Shown here: positions 47,593 to 60,538 of the stretch, piece after piece
Numbering within the stretch: position 1 is the stretch's first letter
Layout of the letters: every line of letters begins with the position of its first letter
Assembly (NCBI GenBank): GCA_050123235.1
Contig: JASFHL010000001.1
Location: forward strand, 84,651-148,650
DNA: 64,000 nucleotides
Origin: Candidatus Woesebacteria bacterium
Lineage (GTDB): Bacteria > Patescibacteriota > Microgenomatia > UBA1400 > PJMF01
Direction of reading: 5' to 3'
Made by a program: the position numbers and the translations under genes
Notes under the pieces: generated by a model
Seen by the model: only the letters and a program-made list of their open reading frames with translations
The model's database searches: none
What the model was told of the DNA's origin: nothing

Positions 47593-48831
47593 ATGATAGA
47601 TGCCAGACCACCAGCAGTTCCTTCTGAAGCCCAAGAGCAAGAGAAGAAAAAAACTTTATCAGGTTTTGAATGGCTACATTTGCCACGTAATAAAGAAATA
47701 ATTGATTTTTTATTACAAAATAAAGAGCAAATTGTTTCCCTAGCTAAAGAAAAAATCAAAACAGATTATGATCAAGCCAAAGAATATCATCAGACCAGGC
47801 ATACAGAACTGGCAGTTAAGCAGATTTTGAAGCTCACAGAGGAAATGTTGAAAGCAGAGGGACTGGAACCAACAGAACATCAGGATGTCTTGGATATCGT
47901 GGAGATATGCGTGACCTATCATGATGCGATTATGAATCCAGGAGAGGCAGCAAAAGGAGCTAGTATTAGCCCAGAATTCAATAGTTATTTGTTTTTAAAA
48001 GATTTAATCCTCAGATCAATTAAAGATGACCAGATAGAAAAACCAAAAGTGACTAAATTAGATAAGCAAGAATTAATATCTCAAGAGTATGGAGAGGAAT
48101 ATCAACAGTTTTATTTCTTCCATGTTGATCTATTCACGAGATTGCGTAGAGCAATTGAAGCTACAGCCATTGATCTAGATCAAGCTATCCATCAACAAAC
48201 TATAGTCCAGTTTTCCAAAGTTCATCCAGATACTGCTAAGGATAGACTGGCTCAACTAGTCTGCACTGCTGATTTGGCGTATTTTGCTCTTTCACCAGTA
48301 GATGAAACATTAGAACTGTCACTCAGATATGCAATTGAGTTTTTTGATTTAAGAAAGAAAGGATCAGTTGCTAAAGCTGCAGAAGGGGGGCATAAACTAG
48401 ACAATTTAGAGCCTGTGATTGAATATCTAGAAGGCCAGGTTAAATATATGGAAAATTATACTTTTCCAGATTTACCGGATTTGCCTGCGGCAGTTGATGC
48501 TTTTAGCATGGAGGAATTTTTGAAGTTGTGGGAAATTCCCGTTGAAGATTATAGAGAGCAGATAGATGAGTTGGATGACGCACAATCCAGAACACTGAAG
48601 CACGATTTATTGCGTGCTGCCATGGATGATTTAGAAGGGGGTTGGGAGGCTCGTGATGAATCAGCAAAAAATCCTCAAATTTTAGCCACGATTAAGCAAG
48701 GCAAAACTCTAGACCGTCTTAGATTAGTCAAAGCTGATTATTATAGGCGAATGGCGGCTGATCTTAAGAAGAACGGCACAGAGTCAAAATATTACGCTGA
48801 AGTGGTAGCAGCCCTGAAGAAGATAGCTTAG
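47593..48831 (+). CDS. hypothetical protein (412 aa), possible HD-like motif
   Basis: ORF; contains YHDAIMNPGE (HD dipeptide) but metal-ligand pattern not verifiable by eye. Confidence 0.3.
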   Translation: MIDARPPAVPSEAQEQEKKKTLSGFEWLHLPRNKEIIDFLLQNKEQIVSLAKEKIKTDYDQAKEYHQTRHTELAVKQILKLTEEMLKAEGLEPTEHQDVLDIVEICVTYHDAIMNPGEAAKGASISPEFNSYLFLKDLILRSIKDDQIEKPKVTKLDKQELISQEYGEEYQQFYFFHVDLFTRLRRAIEATAIDLDQAIHQQTIVQFSKVHPDTAKDRLAQLVCTADLAYFALSPVDETLELSLRYAIEFFDLRKKGSVAKAAEGGHKLDNLEPVIEYLEGQVKYMENYTFPDLPDLPAAVDAFSMEEFLKLWEIPVEDYREQIDELDDAQSRTLKHDLLRAAMDDLEGGWEARDESAKNPQILATIKQGKTLDRLRLVKADYYRRMAADLKKNGTESKYYAEVVAALKKIA

Positions 48832-49778
48832 CGTTTTTTTATCTTTCTTAATTTAAATCTTTTTTCAGCTAAAATTACTCCAACCAAAATTATTATCATA
48901 GCAGCAATTTGCCAATAGCTCAGAGTCTCTCCAAGCCAGAAATAAGCTAAGGGAAGATAAACTAAAGGTTGTAAATACCAGAATAAACTTGCTTCAGAAG
49001 CTTCAATATTATCTTGACCTTTAATATAGGCAGTAAGACCAATAATTGAACCAAAAATAGCCATATAAAGACTGGCGATCCAGACAGAGTAATGACTTGT
49101 ATCTTGGAGGATATTATTGAATAAGTTTGTAGTTGTTAAACCGCTTTCTAGGAAGCTCAAAATAAAAAAACAAATTGTTCCCAGATAAAAACTAATAGTG
49201 GTTACAAAAAATTTGGGTAATTTTTTATAATGTTTTTTGGCGAAAATAAAGTACAAGGTAGTGCTAATATTGTGGCCAATGACTAGTAGATTGCCAGTGA
49301 CAGATAGTTGTTGAACGCCTGTCGCATGATTAAGAAGTGGTACAGCAGATAAAATTAAAGTGCCAGCTAAGGTGAAAATTAATCCCAACCATTCATGTTT
49401 TTCTTCTTTTTCTTTTAAGAATAAAATCCCAGCAATGATAATGAAAATTGGAGTAGTGTTAGCTAGCAAGCTCGCTTCTATAGCAGAAGTTCTCTCCAGA
49501 CCTAGATAAAGAAAAGTTAACGCTAAGACTGTACCTACTAATTCGAGAGCAATAATTTTAAGAAATTGCCTTAAGCTATGTTTAATTTTTGACCAGTAAT
49601 AAAAGAGGATCGGGATAGAGAAAAAACTAGCAAATAAATAACGGTAAAAAAGAAAACGAAAAGGAGTGGTGGCTGCAAAGGCAGGTTTGACAATCACTAA
49701 AGCCGCACCCCATGTAAGGGTATTAATGCTGAGTAGTAAATAAGCCAGTGGACGTTTCCCTAATTTAATTTTTGCCAC
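48828..49778 (-). CDS. EamA/DMT superfamily transporter
   Basis: 316 aa, 10 TM helices in two 5-TM halves. Confidence 0.7.
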   Translation of the reverse strand: MAKIKLGKRPLAYLLLSINTLTWGAALVIVKPAFAATTPFRFLFYRYLFASFFSIPILFYYWSKIKHSLRQFLKIIALELVGTVLALTFLYLGLERTSAIEASLLANTTPIFIIIAGILFLKEKEEKHEWLGLIFTLAGTLILSAVPLLNHATGVQQLSVTGNLLVIGHNISTTLYFIFAKKHYKKLPKFFVTTISFYLGTICFFILSFLESGLTTTNLFNNILQDTSHYSVWIASLYMAIFGSIIGLTAYIKGQDNIEASEASLFWYLQPLVYLPLAYFWLGETLSYWQIAAMIIILVGVILAEKRFKLRKIKKR

Positions 49779-49879: not shown

Positions 49880-51136
49880 CTATTTATCTTTCATCATCTC
49901 AATCGCTTCTTCCACAGATAGTTGTTTTTGTTTACCACTAGTCATATTTTTTAAGCTCAGCAAATCTTTCTCAGCTTCTTCTTCACCAATGATTACTACC
50001 CAAGGGATATTTTTTTTGTCGGCGAGTTTAAATTGTTTGCTAAGTTTATCGAGAGCAGGGTAGACTTCAGTGTTAATGCCGGCTTGGCGAAGCTGATTAG
50101 CAAGTTTCAAAGAAGCAGCTTGGCTTTTTTCATCAAAAATAGTGATAAGAGCTTGGACGGCATTTGTATCAGCAGGAATCAAATCTAGTTTTTCAGCAGC
50201 CTCGACCATGCGGTCAAATCCAAAGGCAATTCCAGTAGCTGGCATATCAACACCACCCAGCTCGTTGATTAAATTGTCATAGCGGCCACCACCTCCACAC
50301 GAACCGACTGGATAATCAGGCAAGATTACTTCAAAAATCATGCCAGTGTAGTAATCTAAGCCGCGAGCCAAACTAGGAGTAAATTCCAGATCTTCTTTTT
50401 TAACCCCAAGATTAACGGCACTTTCTATAATTTGTCTTAAATTGTCTGACATTTGAGCTTTATCCACAGTTGTTAAAACTTGCTTGGCGCTATTTTCTGT
50501 TAAACCTTTTTTAACTAACTCTTCAATTACTTGTTGAGGTTTTAATTTATCTAATTTATCAATTGATTGGATAATAGAAAAGACATTGATTCTGTCTATA
50601 GCAAACGGCTTTAAAGTAGCCATCAAAGTTTGTCGATCATTAATTTTAAGTTTGATGTTTTTAAAACCTACATTTTTAAAAGCTTCATAAGTACAAGCTA
50701 GGATTTCCGCATCTGCCAATGGGGAACTACTGCCAAAAATGTCAATGTCACATTGGGTAAATTCACGATATCTACCTTTTTGAGGTTTGTCAGCACGGAA
50801 CACATTTTGGATTTCATAGCGTCTAAAATACTTAGGTAATTCATTTTGATATTGGGCTAAAACGCGAGCAGTCGGCACTGTTTGATCATATCTTAGACCA
50901 ATTTTTCGCCCCCCTCTGTCTTCGAAAGTATAAACCAGTTTGTCTGCTTCTTCACCGTATTTGCCCAATAATAAAGAAGCATACTCTAAAGTAGGCGTTT
51001 CCAAAGGCTCAAAGCCAAAGTTTTCAAAAGTTTCGATTACTTTTTTGATCACATAATCGCGTTTGCGTTTTTCTGCAGGCAAAAAATCACGAAAACCTTT
51101 TAATGTTTGAACGGATTGTTTAGTTTGTTTTGTCAT
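49880..51136 (-). CDS. hisS: histidyl-tRNA synthetase
   Basis: Class II motifs: LKGFRDFLP (motif 1 region), GLRYDQTVP, FRYE.., GGGRYDNL (motif 3), C-terminal anticodon-binding domain. Confidence 0.9.
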   Translation of the reverse strand: MTKQTKQSVQTLKGFRDFLPAEKRKRDYVIKKVIETFENFGFEPLETPTLEYASLLLGKYGEEADKLVYTFEDRGGRKIGLRYDQTVPTARVLAQYQNELPKYFRRYEIQNVFRADKPQKGRYREFTQCDIDIFGSSSPLADAEILACTYEAFKNVGFKNIKLKINDRQTLMATLKPFAIDRINVFSIIQSIDKLDKLKPQQVIEELVKKGLTENSAKQVLTTVDKAQMSDNLRQIIESAVNLGVKKEDLEFTPSLARGLDYYTGMIFEVILPDYPVGSCGGGGRYDNLINELGGVDMPATGIAFGFDRMVEAAEKLDLIPADTNAVQALITIFDEKSQAASLKLANQLRQAGINTEVYPALDKLSKQFKLADKKNIPWVVIIGEEEAEKDLLSLKNMTSGKQKQLSVEEAIEMMKDK

Positions 51137-51209: not shown

Positions 51210-51276
51210 GGGGGCGTGTTGGTCAGTAATGGATCCGTCAAATCTAATTACAGGGGTTCGAATCCCCTCGCCTCCA
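51210..51276 (+). ncRNA. tRNA-like element lacking a D arm (possible tRNA pseudogene or tRNA-mimic ncRNA); anticodon-position triplet GUC
   Basis: 7-bp acceptor stem GGGGGCG/CGCCUCC, canonical T arm AGGGG-UUCGAAU-CCCCU, 9-bp extended anticodon-like stem with 7-nt loop CCGUCAA, followed by ACA and T7; antisense to flanking his genes. Confidence 0.4.
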
Positions 51277-51432: not shown

Positions 51433-51711
51433 TTACTCCTTTTGTCTTTTTTTTAATTCTGTTAATACTTCCTCAAATTCAATGTTTTTTGCTGTGAGTA
51501 GCACTAAGCTGTGAAACCATAAATCCGCTGTTTCTTCAATTAATCTTTGCTTTGATTGATTCTTACTAGCAATTACAACTTCTGTAGCTTCTTCACCAAC
51601 TTTTTGAGCAATTGCATCAATTCCTCTAGCAAAAAGGGAAGAGACATAAGAACCTTTAGGCATAGTCTTTTGTCTTTGTTTAATAATGGTAGTTAATTTT
51701 TTTAGAATCAT
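51433..51711 (-). CDS. hisE: phosphoribosyl-ATP pyrophosphatase
   Basis: about 92 aa MazG-like; EEATEVVIA...ETADLWFHSLVLL typical of HisE. Confidence 0.8.
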   Translation of the reverse strand: MILKKLTTIIKQRQKTMPKGSYVSSLFARGIDAIAQKVGEEATEVVIASKNQSKQRLIEETADLWFHSLVLLTAKNIEFEEVLTELKKRQKE

Positions 51712-52730
51712 AATATTTGTTTAAAAAAGCAACTTTTATTATTGGTATGACAGATATTTTTACCAATGATTTTGCTTTGTATTAATAATGTATCATTATC
51801 ACAATCCAAAACTATCTTATTAACTTTCAATTTATTACCAGATGTTTCACCTTTCATCCATAGTTTTTTTTTTGATCGACTCCAAAACCAAGCATATCCA
51901 GTTTTGAGTGTCTTTTTAAGAGCTCGTTTATTCATATAAGCTAGCATTAATATTTCCTTGCTTGATTCTTCTTGAACAATGGCAGGAACCAAGCCTCCTT
52001 GTTTTTCAAAATCAACACTATCTTGATCATTAAGATAAAAAAGCCCGTCATAGAGAGCTTTGCCAACAATTACCGCCTCAGCACCAAGATCTATTAACTG
52101 CTTGATATCTTCTTTAGAAGCTATACCACCTGCCATGATGACAGGCATATTGATACTATTAATTAGTTTTTTAATGATTTTTAAATTTGGCCCTGTCTCA
52201 GTGCCATCTCTTAAAGTATCAGTGTAAATTAATCTTTTGACAGTTAGTTTTTCTAATTTTTGAGCTGTTTCTATGAGATTCAATTGTGTGTTTTTTAACC
52301 AGCCTTTTGACATCAACTTACTGTTTTTGGCATCTAGAGAAACAATGATTTGATCAGGGAAAACAGCTAATATTTTTTTTAATAACTCAATATTTTCTAA
52401 AGCAATGCTACCTAAAATGATTCGATTAACACCGAGTTGAATTAGTTTTTTAACGGTCTTGAAATCACGAATACCACCACCGACTTGAGTGGGAATAGAT
52501 ACAGTTTTGATGATATTTTTGATGATTTTTAAGTTTTGAACTTTTCCGACTTTGGCCCCGTCAAGATCCACGATGTGTAAGCTTTTCGCACCTTGATCTT
52601 GCCACTGTTTTGCGACTAATACTGGATCGCTGGCATAGACAGTTTTTTTGCTGAAATCACCTTGTTTTAATCTCACGCAGTTACCATTTTGGATATCAAT
52701 TGCTGGTATGATTTTAGTTAAATTTATCAT
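51708..52730 (-). CDS. hisA: bifunctional ProFAR isomerase (HisA) / phosphoribosyl-AMP cyclohydrolase (HisI) fusion
   Basis: N-terminal HisA barrel (IIPAIDIQNGNCVRLKQGD, HIVDLDGA, GGGIR); C-terminal HisI (GLVPAIVQE, LAYMN, FWSRSKKKLWMKGETSGN, DCDNDTLL, CHT..SCF). Confidence 0.85.
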   Translation of the reverse strand: MINLTKIIPAIDIQNGNCVRLKQGDFSKKTVYASDPVLVAKQWQDQGAKSLHIVDLDGAKVGKVQNLKIIKNIIKTVSIPTQVGGGIRDFKTVKKLIQLGVNRIILGSIALENIELLKKILAVFPDQIIVSLDAKNSKLMSKGWLKNTQLNLIETAQKLEKLTVKRLIYTDTLRDGTETGPNLKIIKKLINSINMPVIMAGGIASKEDIKQLIDLGAEAVIVGKALYDGLFYLNDQDSVDFEKQGGLVPAIVQEESSKEILMLAYMNKRALKKTLKTGYAWFWSRSKKKLWMKGETSGNKLKVNKIVLDCDNDTLLIQSKIIGKNICHTNNKSCFFKQIL

Positions 52731-54163
52731 CTGATTGAAATTCCATGATTTTTTAAATAATTTTTAAGATCAGTAATTTTCAATTTTTGCTTGTGAAATA
52801 AAGTAGCAGCCAATGCAGCATCAGCTTGGCCTTTAGTTAAAGCGTCAAGAAAGTCTTTTTTCTTACCAGCTCCACTGGAAGCAATAATGGGAATGTTAAC
52901 TTTTTTAGCTATGTTGCGTAGTAAGTCCAAATCATAACCCTTTTTAGTCCCATCTCGATCTATGGAGTTGACTAATAATTCGCCAGCACCTAGCGTTTCC
53001 ATTTTTTTAGCAAATTTAAGAGCATCAATGCCAGTCGCTTTTTTACCACTATTGATATATATTTCCCAGCTGTTTCTATTTTTTTTAGGATCAAGTGAAA
53101 TGACAATGCACTGTGAACCAAAACGTTGCGCAGCTTTTTTGACCAGATCAGGATTAGTGACAGCAGCAGAACCAATTGAGACCTTATCAGCGCCTGATAA
53201 AAGCAACTGATAAATATCATTTAAAGTTTTGATACCGCCACCCACAGAAAAGGGGATAGTGATATTTTTAGCAATTTTTTCTACTAGTTTGTAAAGTAGT
53301 CTACGTTTTTCAATAGTGGCAGTAATATCAAGAAACATTAATTCATCAATACCCATTTTGTCATAAAGCTGGGCAAGTTTTACTGGATCTCCAGCATCTT
53401 TAAGCTGTTTGTAATTAGTACCTTTGACTACTTTATTATTTTTAATATCCATGCAAGCAATGATTCTTTTGGCAAGTAAGGATTTGGCTGATTTTAAAGC
53501 AGTTAGTTCTTGCTCAAATCTGATCGGACTTGCTTTTCGTTCAGAAGGGATGGTGGCAGAATTTTCTAGTGCTTCAATGTCACAAAAATTTTTTAACATT
53601 TTTTGACCCAGTTCTCCTGATTTTTCTGGGTGAAATTGCACGCCATAAAAATTATTTTTTTTAATTACTGAAGCAAAGTTGCTACCATATTGTGTTTGCC
53701 CAATGATATTTTTTTTTAGAGGATCACAATAGTAAGAATTCACAAAGTAAAAATAACTATTGTTGGGAATATTTTTAAACAAAGGCTCATTTTTTATTTG
53801 CTTAACTTGGTTCCAACCAATCTGCGGCACCACTAAGTTATTTTTTTTAGGAAATTTTTTTACCTTGCCATCAATAATATCCAAACACTTTGTGTTATCT
53901 TCCTCAGAATAAGAAAGTAAAAGTTGCATGCCAAGACAAATACCTAAAAAAGGGGCTCTTATATCTTGAATTAGCTGCTCAAGCTTGAGTTTTTTAAGTT
54001 CTGGCATCGCCTGACCAGCACGACCTACACCAGGGAAGATAACTTTGCTGGCTTTTTTAATCATAGTAGGATCAGCTGTCACAATGTATTTAGCTCCAAT
54101 TTTGTCTAAAGCATTTGTTACTGAACCTATGTTGCCGGATTTGTAGTTGATGATGGTGATCAT
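52727..54163 (-). CDS. hisF: imidazole glycerol phosphate synthase, fused glutaminase (HisH) and cyclase (HisF) subunits
   Basis: N-terminal class I GATase (FPGVG, catalytic Cys in ICLGMQLL, FHPEKS); C-terminal HisF barrel (IACMDIK..VKGTNY, DELMFLDITA, GGGI). Confidence 0.85.
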   Translation of the reverse strand: MITIINYKSGNIGSVTNALDKIGAKYIVTADPTMIKKASKVIFPGVGRAGQAMPELKKLKLEQLIQDIRAPFLGICLGMQLLLSYSEEDNTKCLDIIDGKVKKFPKKNNLVVPQIGWNQVKQIKNEPLFKNIPNNSYFYFVNSYYCDPLKKNIIGQTQYGSNFASVIKKNNFYGVQFHPEKSGELGQKMLKNFCDIEALENSATIPSERKASPIRFEQELTALKSAKSLLAKRIIACMDIKNNKVVKGTNYKQLKDAGDPVKLAQLYDKMGIDELMFLDITATIEKRRLLYKLVEKIAKNITIPFSVGGGIKTLNDIYQLLLSGADKVSIGSAAVTNPDLVKKAAQRFGSQCIVISLDPKKNRNSWEIYINSGKKATGIDALKFAKKMETLGAGELLVNSIDRDGTKKGYDLDLLRNIAKKVNIPIIASSGAGKKKDFLDALTKGQADAALAATLFHKQKLKITDLKNYLKNHGISIR

Positions 54164-54227
54164 AGTTTCAATGAGATGTTTATTTAAGTTTTTTTTGTCT
54201 TTCTAGAGATTGTAGATTGTCTTTTTT

Positions 54228-54980
54228 TCATAAGAGTAGTTCCCATAAGGTTTCTATATTAATAATTTGAATATTCCCTAGTTTTTTTTCTCCTATATAA
54301 ATACAAGGCATTTGTGCTCTTTTAGCAGCTTCAACATCACTAGAACTATCACCAATATAGATTGTATTTTTGAGAGCTAATTTTTCAGATACCATCAACA
54401 ATGGCTCTGGCTCTGGTTTTCCGTTTTTATAATCTTCCATAGCAATAACAGTATTAAACAAATCAAGGATATTGTTATTTTTTAAGGCATAAATGGCTTC
54501 AAACTTTGGTCTGCCAGTAGCGATTCCCATTTTTTTATATTTCTTTTTAAGATTATCAAGAACTGATTTTGGAATTAACAATTTTTCTGTGTTAATTAGG
54601 CTCTCTATTTTTTTAACAGGAGCTTTTTTGCTATAACATTTTTGATATAAACTTGAACCTAGATAATAACTTTGGAATACAGCAACTATATTTTGGTATA
54701 GTTTGTCCTTGCGATACTTTTCTAAATTACTAATAAACTCTGGTATATCAAATTTTGAATTTTGTTTTTTTAAAATCAAAGCATAACTAGCATCCCAATC
54801 GTTATTTAAACCCACAACTTGTTTGATTGCTAAGACATCTAACTCTGTCACTGTTTTATCAGGACAAAAGTATTGGACAGTTTTTAAGATACAAAGACGA
54901 TATGACTTACTAACATCAATCAGTACACCATCCATGTCCCAGATTAATCCATCTAGTTGGTCAAAGTTAATTTTCTGCAT
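54228..54980 (-). CDS. HAD-IA family hydrolase (candidate histidinol-phosphatase)
   Basis: Motif I DMDGVL, motif IV GDSSSD; embedded in his operon between hisC and hisHF. Confidence 0.55.
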   Translation of the reverse strand: MQKINFDQLDGLIWDMDGVLIDVSKSYRLCILKTVQYFCPDKTVTELDVLAIKQVVGLNNDWDASYALILKKQNSKFDIPEFISNLEKYRKDKLYQNIVAVFQSYYLGSSLYQKCYSKKAPVKKIESLINTEKLLIPKSVLDNLKKKYKKMGIATGRPKFEAIYALKNNNILDLFNTVIAMEDYKNGKPEPEPLLMVSEKLALKNTIYIGDSSSDVEAAKRAQMPCIYIGEKKLGNIQIINIETLWELLL

Positions 54981-56070
54981 AGAAATTTTTAATTTTTTCA
55001 AATAATAAATCGTTGTCTTTTTCTGCTCGAATACCAATACGAACAGCACTGTTAAGATTTTTTTTGCCACTTACATTTTTAATAAACAAACCCTCTCTTT
55101 TTAATTGTTCTACTAACTCAGCTGTTTTACCTGGTAGATAAAGACAAAAGAAGTTAGCTTCACTGGGGATAACATTAAAATTATTTTCAAGATATTTTTT
55201 AGTTACTCTAGAGCGTTCTTGTTTAATTTTATTAGTAAATTTCTCAATAAATTTCAAACCTTTGGTAGTTAAAACTGATAGGGCAATCTCTTGAGAGAAA
55301 TAACTAACTCCCATTGGAAATCTAATGGAATCAAATATTTTAGTCAGCTGTTTATTAGCAATTAAGTAACCAACTCTAGCTCCGGCAATACAAGCAAATT
55401 TTGAAAAACTTCTGAGAATTACAACATTGTTATATTTGAGAGCCAAATCGTTGAAATTATCTTCACAAAATTCTCTGTAAGCTTCATCAATGAGAATAAT
55501 AGAGTTAGTTTTTTGGGCAAGATATTCAATATCCAATTTGTCTAAACTAGTACCAGTAGGATTATTAGGTGAACAAAGAAAAATGATTTTTGTTTTGTGT
55601 TTTTTAGCTGTATTAATGATTTTTTGAGTATCAAGTTGCCAGTTTTTTTTCAGTGGCACTTCAAGCACCTCACCACCATTAATTGCAGTTTGCACTTTAT
55701 ACATACCATAGGTGGGAGGACAAATAATAACATTATCATTTTGATTTAAAAAAGTTTTACAAATCACATCAATAGCTTCATCACCACTATTGGTGAGAGT
55801 GACCATGTTTTTGGGTAATTGCTCGTATTGGGTGACGGCTTTTTTAAGTCTAAAATAGCCAGGATCTTTATAATCATTAACTGCTCTTTCTTGATCTATG
55901 ATTTGTATAAAATCAGGCCAAATATTCGGAATTTGAGCTGGAGTGGCAGTATCAAATCTAACAATTTTTTTTAATTGATATTTTTGACCATATTTTTCTT
56001 CTTCAAGCTCCCATACATAGGGTTTAAAATTTTTTAACTGGTCTCTGAGTAAAAAATTAATATTTTTCAT
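54967..56070 (-). CDS. hisC: histidinol-phosphate aminotransferase
   Basis: Class II aminotransferase fold; NPTGT and PLP-lysine region SFSKFACIAGARVGY. Confidence 0.85.
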   Translation of the reverse strand: MKNINFLLRDQLKNFKPYVWELEEEKYGQKYQLKKIVRFDTATPAQIPNIWPDFIQIIDQERAVNDYKDPGYFRLKKAVTQYEQLPKNMVTLTNSGDEAIDVICKTFLNQNDNVIICPPTYGMYKVQTAINGGEVLEVPLKKNWQLDTQKIINTAKKHKTKIIFLCSPNNPTGTSLDKLDIEYLAQKTNSIILIDEAYREFCEDNFNDLALKYNNVVILRSFSKFACIAGARVGYLIANKQLTKIFDSIRFPMGVSYFSQEIALSVLTTKGLKFIEKFTNKIKQERSRVTKKYLENNFNVIPSEANFFCLYLPGKTAELVEQLKREGLFIKNVSGKKNLNSAVRIGIRAEKDNDLLFEKIKNFYAEN

Positions 56071-56079
56071 ATTTATTCT

Positions 56080-57378
56080 TTATTTTTCAAATCTTACTTG
56101 GCATGAATAAGCGTGAGCTGGTAATGCTTCTACTTGGGCAAAAGTGTTGATAGTATTTTTGATGTCTTTTAACCCCTTTTTACTAGCTTTCTGAAATTGA
56201 ATCAGGCGACCAAAGCTTTCTACACTTAGTGGGCCAAACATCTTGGCGCTTTGACCAGTAGGTAAGACGTGGTTAGCTCCTGTGGCATAATCACCACTAG
56301 CTTTGCAAGTCCAATTACCAATAAAAATAGAACCAGCATTAGTAATTTGTTTAGCTATTTGTAGGGCATTCTTAGTCATAATCTGTAAGTGTTCTGGAGC
56401 ATATTGATTGCTCAAATCAATGCTTGCTTCAAGATTATCAGTAACGATAATGGCTCCATAATTTTTAAGAGCAGAGCGAATAGTATTTTCACTAGCTAGT
56501 GTTGGCAAAATTCTTGCAATTTCTTTTTTAACTGACTCAGCTTGTTTCATAGAGGTAATAAGTAAAATAGCAGTTGAATCATCACCATGTTCGGCATCAG
56601 TAATTAAATCAGCAGCAACAAATCTATTATTGGCAGACTCATCTGCAATAATTAAATTTTCTGAAGGACCAGCAGGCATATCAATATCAATAGTAGGGAA
56701 GAGTAATAATTTAGCAGCAGTAACATATTGATTACCTGGGCCAACAATTTTATAGACTTTGGGAATTGATTCTGTTCCGTAAGCCATGGCAGCAATCGCC
56801 TGGGCACCGCCAACTTTAAAAACTTTTTTAATACCAAGTTTATTCGCAGTTATAATTACTTCCGGCGGCAATCTACCTTGTTGATTTGGTGGTACACAAA
56901 CAATAATGTCATTGCAGCCAGCAATTTGAGCTGGAATAGCAGTCATTAGTAAGGATGAAGGGTAATTAGCTTTACCGCCTGGCACATAGAGACCCACTCT
57001 TTCTATCGCTTGCCAGGAACGCCAGACTTGTATATCTCGTTGCATGACTAAAACTTTTTTTTCTTTAATTAGTTTACTTTTTTGAGCTTGGTGAACTTTT
57101 TGAATGTTTTTTATTGCTTGGTTAAGGGCAGGTATAAAATTTTTATCTATTTGTTGGTAAGCTTCTTTAATTTCACTTTTACTTAATAGAAGATCGTTAA
57201 TTGGAATTTGTCTTTGTTGGTATTTTTTTAGAATAGCTTGATCGCCTTCTTGTCGAACGCTTGCCACTTTGGGACGAATTTGTGCTATTATTTGCCAGTA
57301 ATCAGCAGATGATCTTTCAAAGACTTGCTTTAATTGTTTCTTACTGATAGTTTTTGTTGTATAGATTTTGATTGGCAT
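56080..57378 (-). CDS. hisD: histidinol dehydrogenase
   Basis: 432 aa; NAD/zinc-binding HisD core (GPGNQYVTAAK, DxxAGPSE, EHL) in his operon context. Confidence 0.88.
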   Translation of the reverse strand: MPIKIYTTKTISKKQLKQVFERSSADYWQIIAQIRPKVASVRQEGDQAILKKYQQRQIPINDLLLSKSEIKEAYQQIDKNFIPALNQAIKNIQKVHQAQKSKLIKEKKVLVMQRDIQVWRSWQAIERVGLYVPGGKANYPSSLLMTAIPAQIAGCNDIIVCVPPNQQGRLPPEVIITANKLGIKKVFKVGGAQAIAAMAYGTESIPKVYKIVGPGNQYVTAAKLLLFPTIDIDMPAGPSENLIIADESANNRFVAADLITDAEHGDDSTAILLITSMKQAESVKKEIARILPTLASENTIRSALKNYGAIIVTDNLEASIDLSNQYAPEHLQIMTKNALQIAKQITNAGSIFIGNWTCKASGDYATGANHVLPTGQSAKMFGPLSVESFGRLIQFQKASKKGLKDIKNTINTFAQVEALPAHAYSCQVRFEK

Positions 57379-57391
57379 TTTTTCCTTTTTT

Positions 57392-58270
57392 TTACAAAAT
57401 CATTTTTTCAATTGGTAAAACAATAATTCCTTCAGCCCCTACTTTTTTTAATCTTTCAACTGTTTCCCAAAAGACATCTTCTTTAATTACAGATTGAACG
57501 CTAACCCAAGGTTTTTTGGCTAAAAGTGAAAGAGTAGGAGATTTGAGTCCAGGAATGATTTTTTTCAATTTAGGTAAGATGTCTTCTGGCGCATTCATCA
57601 TGATATATTTATATCTTTGGGCAGATAAAACTCCTTTAAATCTGGTTAATAGTTGTTTGATAATTTTTGCCTTTTTTTCATCTTTTAGTGAGTCTGGATT
57701 GGCAATTAAAACTGCTTCTGATTTATAGATAGTTTCTAAAATGCGTAAATCATTTTGCGCTAAAGTGCTACCAGTAGAAACTAAATCAACAATAGCATCT
57801 GCTATTCCTAGAAGAGGAGCAGCTTCTACTGATCCACTGATTTCAATTAATTTGATTTTTATATTTTTTTCTTTAAAAAATTTTTTCGCGCTTTTGGGAT
57901 ATGAGCTTGCTATTTTAAGACCTTGCAAATCTGAGAGTTTCTTAATTTTAGAATCTTTTGCTACAGCTACTACTAATGAACAAAAACTAAATCTCAAATT
58001 AAGTAACTTTTTGATCTTTTTTCTTTTTTCATTAACTACATTTTGGCCAATAATACCTAAATCCACTATTCCCGTAGAAACATAATCAGTAATGTCATCG
58101 TCTCTGCTATAGATAATTTCTAAAGGGAAATTACGGCAATTAGAAAACAACTTACGATTGTAAGTTTCGAATTCCAAGCCCGCCAACTTTAAAAAAGCTA
58201 CTGTCTCATCAGTGAGGCGGCCAGATTTTTGGATAGCTAGTTTAATTTTATTGTTATTTAGTTTTGTCAT
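57392..58270 (-). CDS. hisG: ATP phosphoribosyltransferase (long form with regulatory domain)
   Basis: IKLAIQKSGRL N-terminus, DLVSTGSTL PRPP-binding signature, about 80-aa C-terminal regulatory domain. Confidence 0.85.
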   Translation of the reverse strand: MTKLNNNKIKLAIQKSGRLTDETVAFLKLAGLEFETYNRKLFSNCRNFPLEIIYSRDDDITDYVSTGIVDLGIIGQNVVNEKRKKIKKLLNLRFSFCSLVVAVAKDSKIKKLSDLQGLKIASSYPKSAKKFFKEKNIKIKLIEISGSVEAAPLLGIADAIVDLVSTGSTLAQNDLRILETIYKSEAVLIANPDSLKDEKKAKIIKQLLTRFKGVLSAQRYKYIMMNAPEDILPKLKKIIPGLKSPTLSLLAKKPWVSVQSVIKEDVFWETVERLKKVGAEGIIVLPIEKMIL

Positions 58271-58384
58271 ATAGCATTTTGCAGAATTAAATTCTACGGT
58301 TTTGAATAATTTTTAAGACTTTAGCAACGCCGAGGCGATTTTTTGTTGCCAGGCTAAGCCAAGTTCTAAATTTTCTAATTTTTG

Positions 58385-58459
58385 GGTGACTGACGGGATT
58401 CGCACCCGCGGCCTTCGCTTTCACAGAGCGACGCTCTAACTAACTGAGCTACAGCCACC
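58385..58459 (-). tRNA. tRNA-His (anticodon GTG) with genome-encoded G-1
   Basis: Cloverleaf: G-1 + GTGGCTG acceptor, D arm GCTC/GAGC, anticodon stem TCGCT/AGCGA with loop CTGTGAA, T arm GCGGG-TGCGAAT-CCCGT, C73 discriminator; CCA not encoded. Confidence 0.85.
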
Positions 58460-58582
58460 ATCTTTAATTTTTACTAGGGTTTGATTTTCAGATTTCCTTA
58501 AATCTCTAAACCCTATCAGATGTTTTAAATAAGCAGTTTCCAATTTTTTAATTTTGTGCGGCTCGTTTATATTAATAATAAG

Positions 58583-58607
58583 CACAAAAAACCCCCCGGC
58601 TGGGGGG
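58583..58607 (-). terminator. strong intrinsic terminator T2 (CCCCCC-AGCC-GGGGGG + U6) in his leader region
   Basis: Perfect 6-bp all-GC stem followed by U-run on the minus strand. Confidence 0.6.
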
Positions 58608-58626
58608 AGTGAAAAGTGTTTATTTA

Positions 58627-58655
58627 ACTAAAAAATCCGGCTTTGGGTCCGGATT
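58627..58655 (-). terminator. intrinsic terminator-like hairpin T1 (AAUCCGG-ACCCAAAG-CCGGAUU + U6) downstream of leader ORF
   Basis: 7-bp inverted repeat followed by U6 on the minus strand. Confidence 0.5.
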
Positions 58656-58684
58656 AATTTCACACAAAAATCACTAACCCCCTT

Positions 58685-58720
58685 TTAGGTGGTATGGTGA
58701 TGATGAGCTAATTGACTCAT
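58685..58720 (-). CDS. putative his operon leader peptide MSQLAHHHHTT (4 consecutive His codons)
   Basis: ATG AGT CAA TTA GCT CAT CAT CAC CAT ACC ACC TAA; lies between a consensus promoter and tandem terminators upstream of tRNA-His/hisG. Confidence 0.55.
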   Translation of the reverse strand: MSQLAHHHHTT

Positions 58721-58743
58721 GTTTTGTGTTTTCATAAATGATT

Positions 58744-58772
58744 ATTATATATAAGTTTTGTTGTGTGTCAAC
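58744..58772 (-). promoter_or_regulatory. sigma-70-like promoter TTGACA-N17-TATAAT driving the his leader
   Basis: Minus-strand TTGACA (58772-58767) and TATAAT (58749-58744), about 24 nt upstream of leader ATG. Confidence 0.5.
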
Positions 58773-58786
58773 TTTTAGCGACTTTT

Positions 58787-59779
58787 CTACAAAGCCAATT
58801 TTTTCCCATCAATCTTGATTATTGGCTTCAATGTTAGAGCATCTAAATGGATTGGCACATCAACTTCACCACCAATACAACTACTATTTCCAAAAGCAAT
58901 ATGAGCAGTTTTTAAAGCCTTTTCAGCTTCGATCATTTTGCCTAAAGGATTAGTCTTGGGGTTGGTACCAATCCCGATCTCAGCAATGTTAAACGCATCT
59001 GGGCCGATTTTTTTGAGTTTCTCTTCTAAGGCCTGAGCAAGTTGATGATTGTTTGACTCGCTTTCAAATTTGACAGCTAAGCCATTTTTAATAGTCACCT
59101 TGATTGGTTTTTTGAGTTTAAAATCAGCTAAAGCGCCATTGATTATCCAAGTTCCTTGAGAGCTGCCTTTAATTGGGGCAAAGAAAACTTCACCTGCGGG
59201 AAGATTACCAAGTTCGCCATTTTTTAGAATTCCGCCATCATTGAAAATAGCTTTTTGGCGAATAGCTGCACTGAAGTTTGTCTCTGATGGAGAACTAATA
59301 TGAATAGTGTTTGCTTTTTGGAGTTTGGCTTTTATTTCCTCGCCTAGTTTTTTAATTTTATGATAGTCAGTTGTCAGAGTGCGACGCATGATTTTGTAAT
59401 TAACTCCTGGCAAACTAGCACCACGATGATTGTTTCTTACCACTGCTTTGCCAGCTTTGCTGTGGGTAAGGGAGAATTTTGTATGGAGGATCGTAATGTT
59501 TGCCTGCGCGCAAGCCTGAACTACCTCATCAGGTGGTTCTTGGCCACTGTGAGTCATACCAGCCAAGACTATCATCTGCACTTTATCAGTGAGGGTTTTG
59601 GCAGTCTCGAACCAAATGGCAGCCTCTTTTTTATAAAATCTGATGTCTGTGACAATTAGGACATTATCATTCTTTTGGAAATTAAGGTTATTTTTGAGAA
59701 TTTTTTGACCTAATCTTAATTCTGCTGTTTGTAAGCGCAGCAAACTTTGATCAGCTGAAATTATTTTGTGAATTTTCAT
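58787..59779 (-). CDS. aminopeptidase, M29 (AmpS/PepS, thermophilic metalloprotease) family
   Basis: about 330 aa; overall pattern of M29 family including metal-ligand-containing regions (HTKFSLTH, IAEIGIGTN, HIAFG); assignment by similarity of pattern only. Confidence 0.55.
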   Translation of the reverse strand: MKIHKIISADQSLLRLQTAELRLGQKILKNNLNFQKNDNVLIVTDIRFYKKEAAIWFETAKTLTDKVQMIVLAGMTHSGQEPPDEVVQACAQANITILHTKFSLTHSKAGKAVVRNNHRGASLPGVNYKIMRRTLTTDYHKIKKLGEEIKAKLQKANTIHISSPSETNFSAAIRQKAIFNDGGILKNGELGNLPAGEVFFAPIKGSSQGTWIINGALADFKLKKPIKVTIKNGLAVKFESESNNHQLAQALEEKLKKIGPDAFNIAEIGIGTNPKTNPLGKMIEAEKALKTAHIAFGNSSCIGGEVDVPIHLDALTLKPIIKIDGKKLAL

Positions 59780-59917
59780 ATTTTTTCATTTTAAAATGTT
59801 TTCTTGTCTTATTTTATCCTGTTTGGCAATCTTAGCCGCAGATTTATTTGGATAAATTCAAGCAAGTTTAGATAAAAAGAGCTATTATATGAGGCAGTTA
59901 TAGATCTAAATTTTGGA

Positions 59918-60538
59918 TCAAAAATATTCCAAAGCCTCTTTAACTGTAGTAGAAGCTCCATGACCTGGATAAAGAACAGTGTTTTTTGGCAACTTGAAAA
60001 TTTTTCCTAAAGATTGTTTGAGTATTTTAGCATCACTACCTTCTAAGTCTGTTCTTCCATAATAGCCATCTGCAAAAATAGTATCTCCAGTAAAGGCTAA
60101 TTGTTCTTTTTCAGAATAGAGAACAACACTCCCCGGAGTATGGCCTGGAGTTTCTATAATTTTTAAAGAAAGTCCTGATATGTTTAAAGATTGGTCATTT
60201 TTTAAAAAATGATTTACTTTAGGCAGAGTTTTAATTTCTTTTTTAATAAAAAATTTTGCCATAGCAGGAGCGCTATTTAAAATAAAGCTGTCTTTTTTGT
60301 TTAAGTAAAAGGGGAGATTCGTAAATTTTTTTTTTAGCTCATTGATAGCTAGAATATGGTCAAAATGGCCGTGAGTAGCCAGAATGCCTTGGGGTTTTAA
60401 TTTGAGTTTTTTAATTTGTTCAATGATTAAGTCAGCATCATCACCAGGGTCGATAATCAAAGCGTTTTTATTTTTTTGATGATAAAAAAGATAACAATTA
60501 GTTTTCAGCGGCCCGACAGCTAAAGTCAATACCGGCAT
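59918..60538 (-). CDS. MBL-fold metallo-hydrolase (glyoxalase II-like)
   Basis: HGHFDH motif (HxHxDH), downstream TPGHTPGS and conserved His/Asp ligands. Confidence 0.8.
   Translation of the reverse strand: MPVLTLAVGPLKTNCYLFYHQKNKNALIIDPGDDADLIIEQIKKLKLKPQGILATHGHFDHILAINELKKKFTNLPFYLNKKDSFILNSAPAMAKFFIKKEIKTLPKVNHFLKNDQSLNISGLSLKIIETPGHTPGSVVLYSEKEQLAFTGDTIFADGYYGRTDLEGSDAKILKQSLGKIFKLPKNTVLYPGHGASTTVKEALEYF

Follow-up and report, generated by a model that had tools for sequence, protein, structure and literature searches.

The window analysed here is a 64,000-nucleotide stretch of DNA from a Candidatus Woesebacteria bacterium, and the element in question is the leader region of its histidine biosynthesis operon, in which a promoter, a short open reading frame (ORF) with four consecutive His codons, two terminator-like hairpins and a tRNA-His gene precede hisG. 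In the direction of transcription the features are the following.

58744-58771, minus strand: sigma-70-type promoter, with TTGACA at 58771-58766, a spacer of 16 nucleotides (nt) and TATAAT at 58749-58744.
58685-58735, minus strand: leader ORF, from the sequence and an ORF scan, with its TAA at 58687-58685.
58694-58705, minus strand: four tandem His codons, CAU CAU CAC CAU, the proposed sensor codons.
58687-58701, minus strand: region 1, AUCACCAUACCACCU, spanning His codons 3-4, both Thr codons and the first stop-codon base.
58670-58682, minus strand: region 2, GGGGGUUAGUGAU, the switch strand, just after the stop codon.
58630-58655, minus strand: hairpin T1, from a terminator scan, with AAUCCGG (58655-58649), loop ACCCAAAG, CCGGAUU (58640-58634) and UUUU.
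58602-58612, minus strand: region 3, UCACUCCCCCC, the antiterminator 3' strand, which includes the 5' arm of T2.
58586-58607, minus strand: intrinsic terminator T2, from a terminator scan, CCCCCC-AGCC-GGGGGG (58607-58592) followed by U6 (58591-58586).
58460-58585, minus strand: spacer of 126 nt between T2 and the tRNA gene, not found in related loci.
58384-58459, minus strand: tRNA-His(GUG), from ARAGORN (58458-58384) and Rfam (tRNA model, 67 bits), with an encoded G-1 at 58459 and C73.
57392-58270, minus strand: hisG, a long-form ATP phosphoribosyltransferase (Pfam HisG and HisG_C), the first structural gene.
51433-57378, minus strand: hisD, hisC, a HAD phosphatase gene, a hisH-hisF fusion, a hisA-hisI fusion and hisE, all but hisE from Pfam.

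The promoter agrees with the consensus at 12/12 positions and is the sole 12/12 match in the 3.5 kb that were scanned (57000-60500), where promoter-like matches overall were no more frequent than in shuffled sequence. Its -35 box begins 16 nt past the stop codon (58787) of an upstream M29 peptidase gene, and from its position transcription would start at about 58738-58736. An earlier note on this DNA, made from the sequence alone, had reported the same two hexamers with a spacer of 17 nt; the hexamers stand, and the spacer is 16 nt. The note had also described the leader ORF as MSQLAHHHHTT with four His codons. That 11-codon form, which starts at the in-frame ATG 58720, is present, but a further in-frame ATG at 58735 had been overlooked, from which the ORF runs for 16 codons (MKTQNMSQLAHHHHTT) before the stop. 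ATG 58735 lies 8 nt downstream of the -10 box, and this spacing, taken together with that in related loci, suggests that the ORF is translated from a leaderless or near-leaderless transcript. The run of His codons is unlikely to have arisen by chance: among 3000 dinucleotide-shuffled versions of the 516-nt intergenic region, a single one had at least four CAY codons in tandem (~3e-4). The ORF, rich in codons for the amino acid that the operon makes, is placed 415 nt 5' of hisG.

T2, which stands between the leader ORF and the first gene, has the sequence given in the earlier note and is a strong terminator with a stem of six G-C pairs and -13.1 kcal/mol. T1, with a 7-bp stem and -9.2 kcal/mol, is weak and terminator-like; the note had credited it with six terminal U residues, two of which close the stem so that only UUUU follow. 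Region 2 has three possible partners, namely region 1, the 5' arm and loop of T1, and region 3. Pairing with region 1 (the 1:2 hairpin) is worth -10.2 kcal/mol alone and is present in minimum free energy (MFE) folds, and it involves the His codons themselves, a pairing absent from the note's model; a related locus, L074, forms a long 1:2 stem at the homologous position. The duplex with the 5' arm and loop of T1 reaches -8.5 kcal/mol (p ~0.01-0.02 against shuffles). The strongest pairing is that of GGGGG-UU-AGUGA (58682-58671) with UCACU-C-CCCCC (58612-58602), at -16.7 kcal/mol, for which dinucleotide shuffles gave -9.6 +/- 2.9 kcal/mol (p ~0.02); here the partner of region 2 is UCACUCCCCC (58612-58603), which takes in the 5' arm of T2.

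The energies of the competing states also fall in the order expected of an attenuator. The state with 1:2, T1 and T2 has about -32.5 kcal/mol, the antiterminated fold -27.2 kcal/mol, and the state with T1 and T2 but region 1 masked -22.3 kcal/mol. We represented the ribosome as a mask with a 31-nt footprint and computed pair probabilities, running MFE folds as well; with the stop codon in the A site (+12 nt), the masked part of region 2 is 58682-58675. The probability of the T2 stem was 0.94 in free RNA, 0.65 with the A site at the first His codon, 0.19 at the fourth and 0.92 at the stop codon, and the MFE structures under the same masks show the same switch. A T2 stem that is improbable under a stalled ribosome and probable at the stop codon, together with the region 2:3 duplex, amounts to a mutually exclusive antiterminator for T2. 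The proposal that the G-tract after the stop codon is the antiterminator strand of T2 is thereby upheld, and the comparison of terminator and antiterminator energies suggested in the earlier note came out in its favor.

On this evidence we consider it probable that the region is a ribosome-mediated leader-peptide transcription attenuator that senses His-tRNA-His. The mechanism that we infer, from transcription start and choice of ATG through stalling and T1 bypass to the dependence of the tRNA on read-through and its behavior in vivo, would run as follows. Transcription would begin at the consensus promoter, near 58737, and the near-leaderless ORF would be translated while it emerges. With plentiful charged tRNA-His the ribosome would reach the UAA and cover region 2, T1 and then T2 would form, and transcription would stop. 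If no ribosome is loaded, the segment of His and Thr codons would capture region 2 in the 1:2 hairpin, with the same termination as the outcome. A ribosome stalled on the four His codons would instead mask region 1 and leave region 2 free to pair with the 5' arm and loop of T1, before switching to the stronger UCACUCCCCC. T2 would then lose its 5' arm, and RNA polymerase would read into tRNA-His and hisGDC-HAD-HF-AI-E, so that, with charged tRNA-His scarce, the tRNA and the synthesis of histidine would both increase.

The role of T1 in this scheme is less straightforward, and the note's model, otherwise borne out by the constrained folds and by analogous leaders in relatives, had left T1 unregulated. 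T1 is nested in the loop of the T2 antiterminator. We considered an equilibrium antiterminator for T1 and rejected it, because T1 is present in every constrained MFE fold and the alternatives to it are transient only. In a stepwise co-transcriptional series, with the ribosome parked on the fourth His codon and the transcript lengthened, region 2 first pairs with AUUAAUCC (-6.6 kcal/mol) and then with GACCC of the T1 arm and loop (-9.5 kcal/mol). Once the 3' arm of T1 emerges, the T1 state stands at -10.5 kcal/mol and is better by 1 kcal/mol; with the emergence of region 3, region 2 pairs there instead (-26 to -27 kcal/mol), which completes the antiterminator. In a pairwise alignment the window's T1 falls opposite the single attenuator terminator of L074. 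We favor the inference that one sensor strand deals with T1 and T2 in succession, T2 being an additional and stronger gate; alternatively, T1 might act as a constitutive partial terminator.

Related loci were drawn from genome and metagenome collections, which gave ~50 hisG loci of Microgenomates type, and from an exact-protein look-up, which added three. Three of the nearest relatives were looked up: in two the contig stops shortly before hisG on its upstream side, and in the third a T-box and tRNA-His are present. Upstream of hisG two mutually exclusive classes of leader occur, peptide leaders and T-box-like leaders. Leader ORFs with His codons (HH to HHHH) behind a consensus promoter were found in 19 of the ~50 loci, the window included. 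In most of them there is a hairpin at the stop codon, and the 5' arm of the terminator complements the strand near the stop. Leader peptides include the following.

Locus L018: MLSQLANSLSLEVVHHCLALAG
Locus L082: MLSQLDNSLSLEVSHHYPAEVG
Locus L014: MINKKLIVNNHHHHSSLVPAG
Locus L074: MISLVSQLHHHNQTS
Locus L009: MNFINLTNSNSHHTPPLAGSPFM
Locus L007: MKQKTFFLNSFHHNPHFLRGELTM

The paired arms read GCGGGG/CCCCGC in most loci, GUGGGG/CCCCAC in L082, GGGAGG/CCUCCC in L050, GCGGUGU/ACACCGC in L084 and GUUGGU/ACCAGC in L074. Arms that differ and yet stay complementary are, at the level of the class and as judged from sequence, the signature of a real switch. It is at the class level only that the arrangement with its pairings is conserved. 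An alignment of an 11-leader family showed strong conservation with few compensatory changes, L082 being the clear case. The comparison with relatives proposed in the earlier note recovered His-codon leaders that follow the same logic in unrelated sequences. The ribosome-masking test gave the expected pattern in L006, L014 and L074. Run automatically over all related leaders, the test gave mixed results, and in four loci its terminator detection took long-range pairs; we therefore relied on complementarities between segments read by hand. L074 and L009 have the same order as the window, with leader, terminator, tRNA-His and hisG in succession, and the L074 leader aligns with that of the window.

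In seven of these loci the leader ATG comes 6 nt past the -10 box and in the others 8-12 nt past it, and this range of 6-12 nt favors ATG 58735 as the start of the window's leader. The loci with an ATG exactly 6 nt past the -10 hexamer (for example TAACAT-actaac-ATG) are L006, L007, L017, L018, L081, L082 and L085, and their leader ORFs are probably translated from leaderless transcripts. A different design was observed in L019 (2872-2980) and L086 (1172-1275), where the 5' arm of the terminator directly follows the leader stop codon and there is no separate antiterminator strand; in these two the stalled ribosome may itself occlude the terminator.

A T-box-like leader takes the place of the peptide leader in 26 loci, all of which carry an invariant GGAUGGGACCGCG with a terminator behind it; the UGGG of this motif would be a match for C73, the discriminator of tRNA-His. 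In 21 of the 26, a short hairpin with co-varying stems presents GUCACGA, with CAC as the His specifier. When the T-box-like leader of L011 was compared with Rfam it reached 38 bits (E 3.5e-7), where the gathering score is 93, so that standard annotation would miss these leaders. His T-box-like leaders with a very short Stem I were seen in L001-L005, L008, L010-L013, L061-L063, L067-L072, L076, L083, L123 and L124.

The tRNA-His gene of the window, claimed in the earlier note to lie between attenuator and hisG, is confirmed by ARAGORN and Rfam. Its sequence (GGUGGCUG...CAGUCACC) folds into a cloverleaf with a GUG anticodon and has G-1 opposite C73, as a bacterial tRNA-His should. By profile search, 21/50 loci have a tRNA-His gene directly upstream of hisG (~18 without duplicates), as do L122 and L123. 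In the window, L009 and L074 this gene comes after a peptide leader and its terminator. Motif and profile place it behind a T-box terminator in at least 12 loci (among them L001, L008, L011, L012, L063, L067-L069, L072, L083 and L123); in L014 it precedes the peptide leader and has its own promoter. Relatives have 0-20 nt between the terminator U-tract and tRNA-His and 2-20 nt between the tRNA and the hisG ATG, a spacing so tight that there is often no room for a promoter of the tRNA's own. The extreme is L123 (1195-1280), in which the T-box U-tract abuts tRNA-His and the hisG ATG comes 2 nt past the discriminator base (2-4 nt when L063 is counted with it). Such spacing implies that tRNA and hisG would be transcribed by read-through only, and that processing of the tRNA would leave a leaderless hisG mRNA.

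The elbow of the window's tRNA-His is non-canonical, with a D-loop, AGUUAGUUA, that lacks GG and a T-loop, UGCGAAU, with G at position 55; the window's tRNA-Ala has a canonical elbow. Across the loci the D- and T-loops of the embedded tRNA-His genes co-vary, GG going with UUC and AG with (A/U)GC. The non-canonical copies (window, L001, L008, L062, L067, L069 and L074) have D-loops AAAAGUA or the same loop as the window, and these GG-less D-loops go with T-loops AGCGUUA, AGCAUUA or UGCGAAU (G at position 55); the GG copies keep UUCAAAU. G-1, C73 and the GUG anticodon are kept in all embedded copies. Co-varying elbows and retained identity elements argue for functional tRNAs rather than decayed copies.

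In the window the tRNA-His gene is separated from hisG by 113 nt. No promoter of at least 9/12 was found between T2 and the tRNA or between the tRNA and hisG, where the best candidates reach 8/12 with off-size spacing (between T2 and the tRNA, 8/12 with a 15-nt spacer). As there is no other credible promoter before the tRNA or hisG, tRNA-His is probably co-regulated with the his pathway. The 126-nt spacer also holds a hairpin, GGGUUU...AAACCC (GGGUUUAGAGAUUU..AAAUCUGAAAAUCAAACCC, 58477-58513, minus strand), which could be a processing site or a remnant. A more far-reaching proposal, which we offer tentatively and regard as possible though doubtful when taken as a whole, is that the sole tRNA-His gene of a reduced genome of the Candidate Phyla Radiation (CPR) is transcribed only by read-through of a His-tRNA-His switch, an attenuator here and a T-box in sister lineages, and is thus autoregulated together with histidine biosynthesis. 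Processing would then free a leaderless or near-leaderless hisG mRNA, and one G-rich strand would neutralise T1 and then T2.

Several observations weigh against the attenuator. T1 persists in all equilibrium folds, its proposed bypass depends on structures that are nearly isoenergetic (-9.5 against -10.5 kcal/mol), and efficient termination at T1 would leave the T2 switch with little importance. The 1:2 hairpin is no better than in dinucleotide shuffles (p 0.21), the leader ORF has no Shine-Dalgarno sequence, and the masking test failed at equilibrium in L015, L017, L018 and L084. The best other HisG has 70% identity, which precludes a base-by-base covariation test for the window's leader, and the 126-nt spacer could conceal a non-consensus promoter.

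Alternatively, T1 and T2 might be no more than tandem terminators for the M29 peptidase gene upstream, with a His run that is there by chance and with tRNA-His and hisG expressed from their own promoter, which would lie unrecognised in the spacer. No terminator separates the peptidase stop codon (58787) from T1, so the peptidase transcript must end at T1 and T2 as well, and a T1 that is constitutive at equilibrium and a spacer before the tRNA that relatives lack agree with such an arrangement. Against it, a 12/12 promoter stands between the peptidase gene and the leader ORF, and a His run seen once in 3000 shuffles is placed exactly upstream of a his operon. Moreover, region 2 shows complementarity to the 5' arm of T1 and to that of T2 (p ~0.02 each), analogous leaders occur in 18 other loci, and the spacer holds no promoter of 9/12 or better; we consider this explanation quite unlikely. 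Even less probable, and in our view very improbable, is a T-box or another riboswitch that binds tRNA or a ligand in place of translation of a small ORF. About half of the related hisG loci do use a His T-box-like leader at this position, often with an embedded tRNA-His, but the window has neither the T-box motif (GGNUGGNACCGCG) nor a specifier hairpin, no Rfam T-box or other cis-regulatory model matches 58000-59000 even at E<=10, and none of the loci combines a T-box with a peptide leader.

It could also be that the attenuator is real and that the tRNA-His is mainly a processing signal or a dispensable second copy, with RNase P and 3' processing cutting the leader from the hisG mRNA and tRNA supply independent of the locus. 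The hisG ATG lies 2-4 nt past the tRNA in L123 and L063, where processing would give a leaderless hisG mRNA, and several of the embedded tRNA-His genes have non-canonical D- and T-loops, some being missed by ARAGORN. Against this, all copies keep G-1, C73 and GUG, the co-varying loops argue for an elbow that is selected and functional, and the L014 tRNA-His, with its own promoter upstream of the leader, looks like any ordinary tRNA gene. A CPR genome usually has a single gene for each tRNA species, which also counts against a second copy. Taken together, we find a tRNA kept mainly for processing or as a spare copy rather unlikely, and the reading that we prefer remains an attenuator that senses His-tRNA-His.

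The genes behind the leader form a his operon with two fusions (51708-54163, minus strand), which encode a 478-aa protein with GATase and His_biosynth domains and a 340-aa protein with His_biosynth and PRA-CH domains. hisE was assigned from ORF position and translated sequence only, and a terminator-like hairpin lies 3' of its ORF; no imidazoleglycerol-phosphate dehydratase domain was seen among the operon ORFs that were scanned. Just downstream of the operon lie hisS, for histidyl-tRNA synthetase (49880-51136, minus strand), and the gene for an EamA-family transporter (48828-49778, minus strand), such that tRNA-His, the histidine biosynthesis genes and the gene for the synthetase are grouped within 10 kb. 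Between hisE and hisS, on the opposite strand, is a tRNA-like gene (51210-51276, plus strand) with a shortened D-arm, which was missed by ARAGORN and scores 36 bits with the Rfam tRNA model, above the gathering score; if its anticodon loop is taken as CCGUCAA, the anticodon is GUC (Asp). An NCBI protein from a metagenome-assembled genome of Candidatus Woesebacteria matches HisG at 100% identity. The next best match is only ~70% identical, which points to a lineage without a close sampled relative.

Gene regulation in Patescibacteria/CPR is almost undescribed. The locus and its relatives suggest that Microgenomates retain classical sensors of tRNA charging for histidine biosynthesis, that lineages have swapped T-box and leader peptide at one site, and that many have put the sensed tRNA behind the sensor. 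If the tRNA-His of the window is the sole one, the locus would be a compact homeostatic loop that joins tRNA supply, amino-acid synthesis and a hisS gene a few kb downstream, and an example from nature of attenuation that acts on a tRNA gene.

The closest classical counterpart is hisL of E. coli and Salmonella (RF00514), in which a short ORF likewise contains a tandem run of His codons and hisG is preceded by a Rho-independent terminator. It too has mutually exclusive hairpins, three for the terminated state (A:B, C:D and E:F in hisL; 1:2, T1 and T2 predicted in the window), and in it charged tRNA-His is sensed through the position of the ribosome. The window differs in having four His codons where hisL has seven, a near-leaderless ORF without a Shine-Dalgarno sequence, tandem hairpins with U-tracts, and tRNA-His between attenuator and hisG, whereas hisR of E. 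coli lies elsewhere; it also belongs to another phylum. Mutations in the tRNA-His gene hisR derepress the enterobacterial his operon. The Rfam His_leader model RF00514 had no match in 58000-59000 (E<=10, permissive filters) nor at the gathering threshold across the window, and the T-box model RF00230 had none in the window. Matches to Arrc14 and JA04 were far below threshold and were discarded; tRNAs were the only Rfam matches accepted, both in this region and in the whole window.

The earlier note had called His-leader attenuation classically enterobacterial and unexpected in a genome such as this one, which overstates the case. Independent His-leader attenuators have already been described in Proteobacteria, Firmicutes and Actinobacteria (PMC9413887, PMC1262725), those of the Firmicutes being predicted in the B. 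cereus group, Peptostreptococcaceae and Erysipelotrichales (PMC9413887) and those of the Actinobacteria being described in PMC1262725. We also observed His leaders in Bacteroidota loci L032-L048 (MKQNIHIHHHHFLP..., MIHHHSI), and in Microgenomates they are common. The leaders of Firmicutes, Actinobacteria and Bacteroidota evolved independently, have 3-5 His codons with terminator and antiterminator hairpins upstream of his operons, and alternate with His T-boxes inside one phylum, as the leaders of Microgenomates do. Their sequences are unrelated to those found here, and none has been reported with an embedded tRNA-His.

Within Microgenomates, the window shares with L074, L009, L014 and the L015/17/18/81/82/85 family a consensus promoter, a leaderless or near-leaderless HH-HHHH ORF, a G-rich switch strand at the stop codon and a terminator before hisG, and the L074 peptide (..SQLHHHNQTS) resembles its own (..SQLAHHHHTT). 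The window differs from these relatives by its second, stronger terminator T2 with a switch-strand pairing of its own and by the 126-nt spacer; most of them have only two His codons, and in L014 the tRNA stands before the leader. The His T-box (RF00230) of related loci has the same position, the same cargo (tRNA-His and/or hisG) and the same sensed tRNA, but a T-box works without translation, by direct binding of uncharged tRNA, and the window has none. A further parallel is found in the leaderless poly-Cys attenuators of mycobacteria (bioRxiv 10.1101/834739), in which a short ORF at or near the 5' end of the transcript senses one amino acid; there the amino acid and the phylum are different, and the leaderless start in our case is deduced from the spacing between promoter and ATG. 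Among open-access papers and preprints we found no report of attenuators or T-boxes in Patescibacteria/CPR, nor of tRNA-His between a His sensor and hisG. Compared with these systems, the leader of the window is probably the known hisL-type mechanism in a new phylum; its tandem terminators, which one switch strand would serve, are distinctive, and the novel part is the tRNA-His placed behind the sensor, an arrangement that recurs across Microgenomates with either type of sensor.

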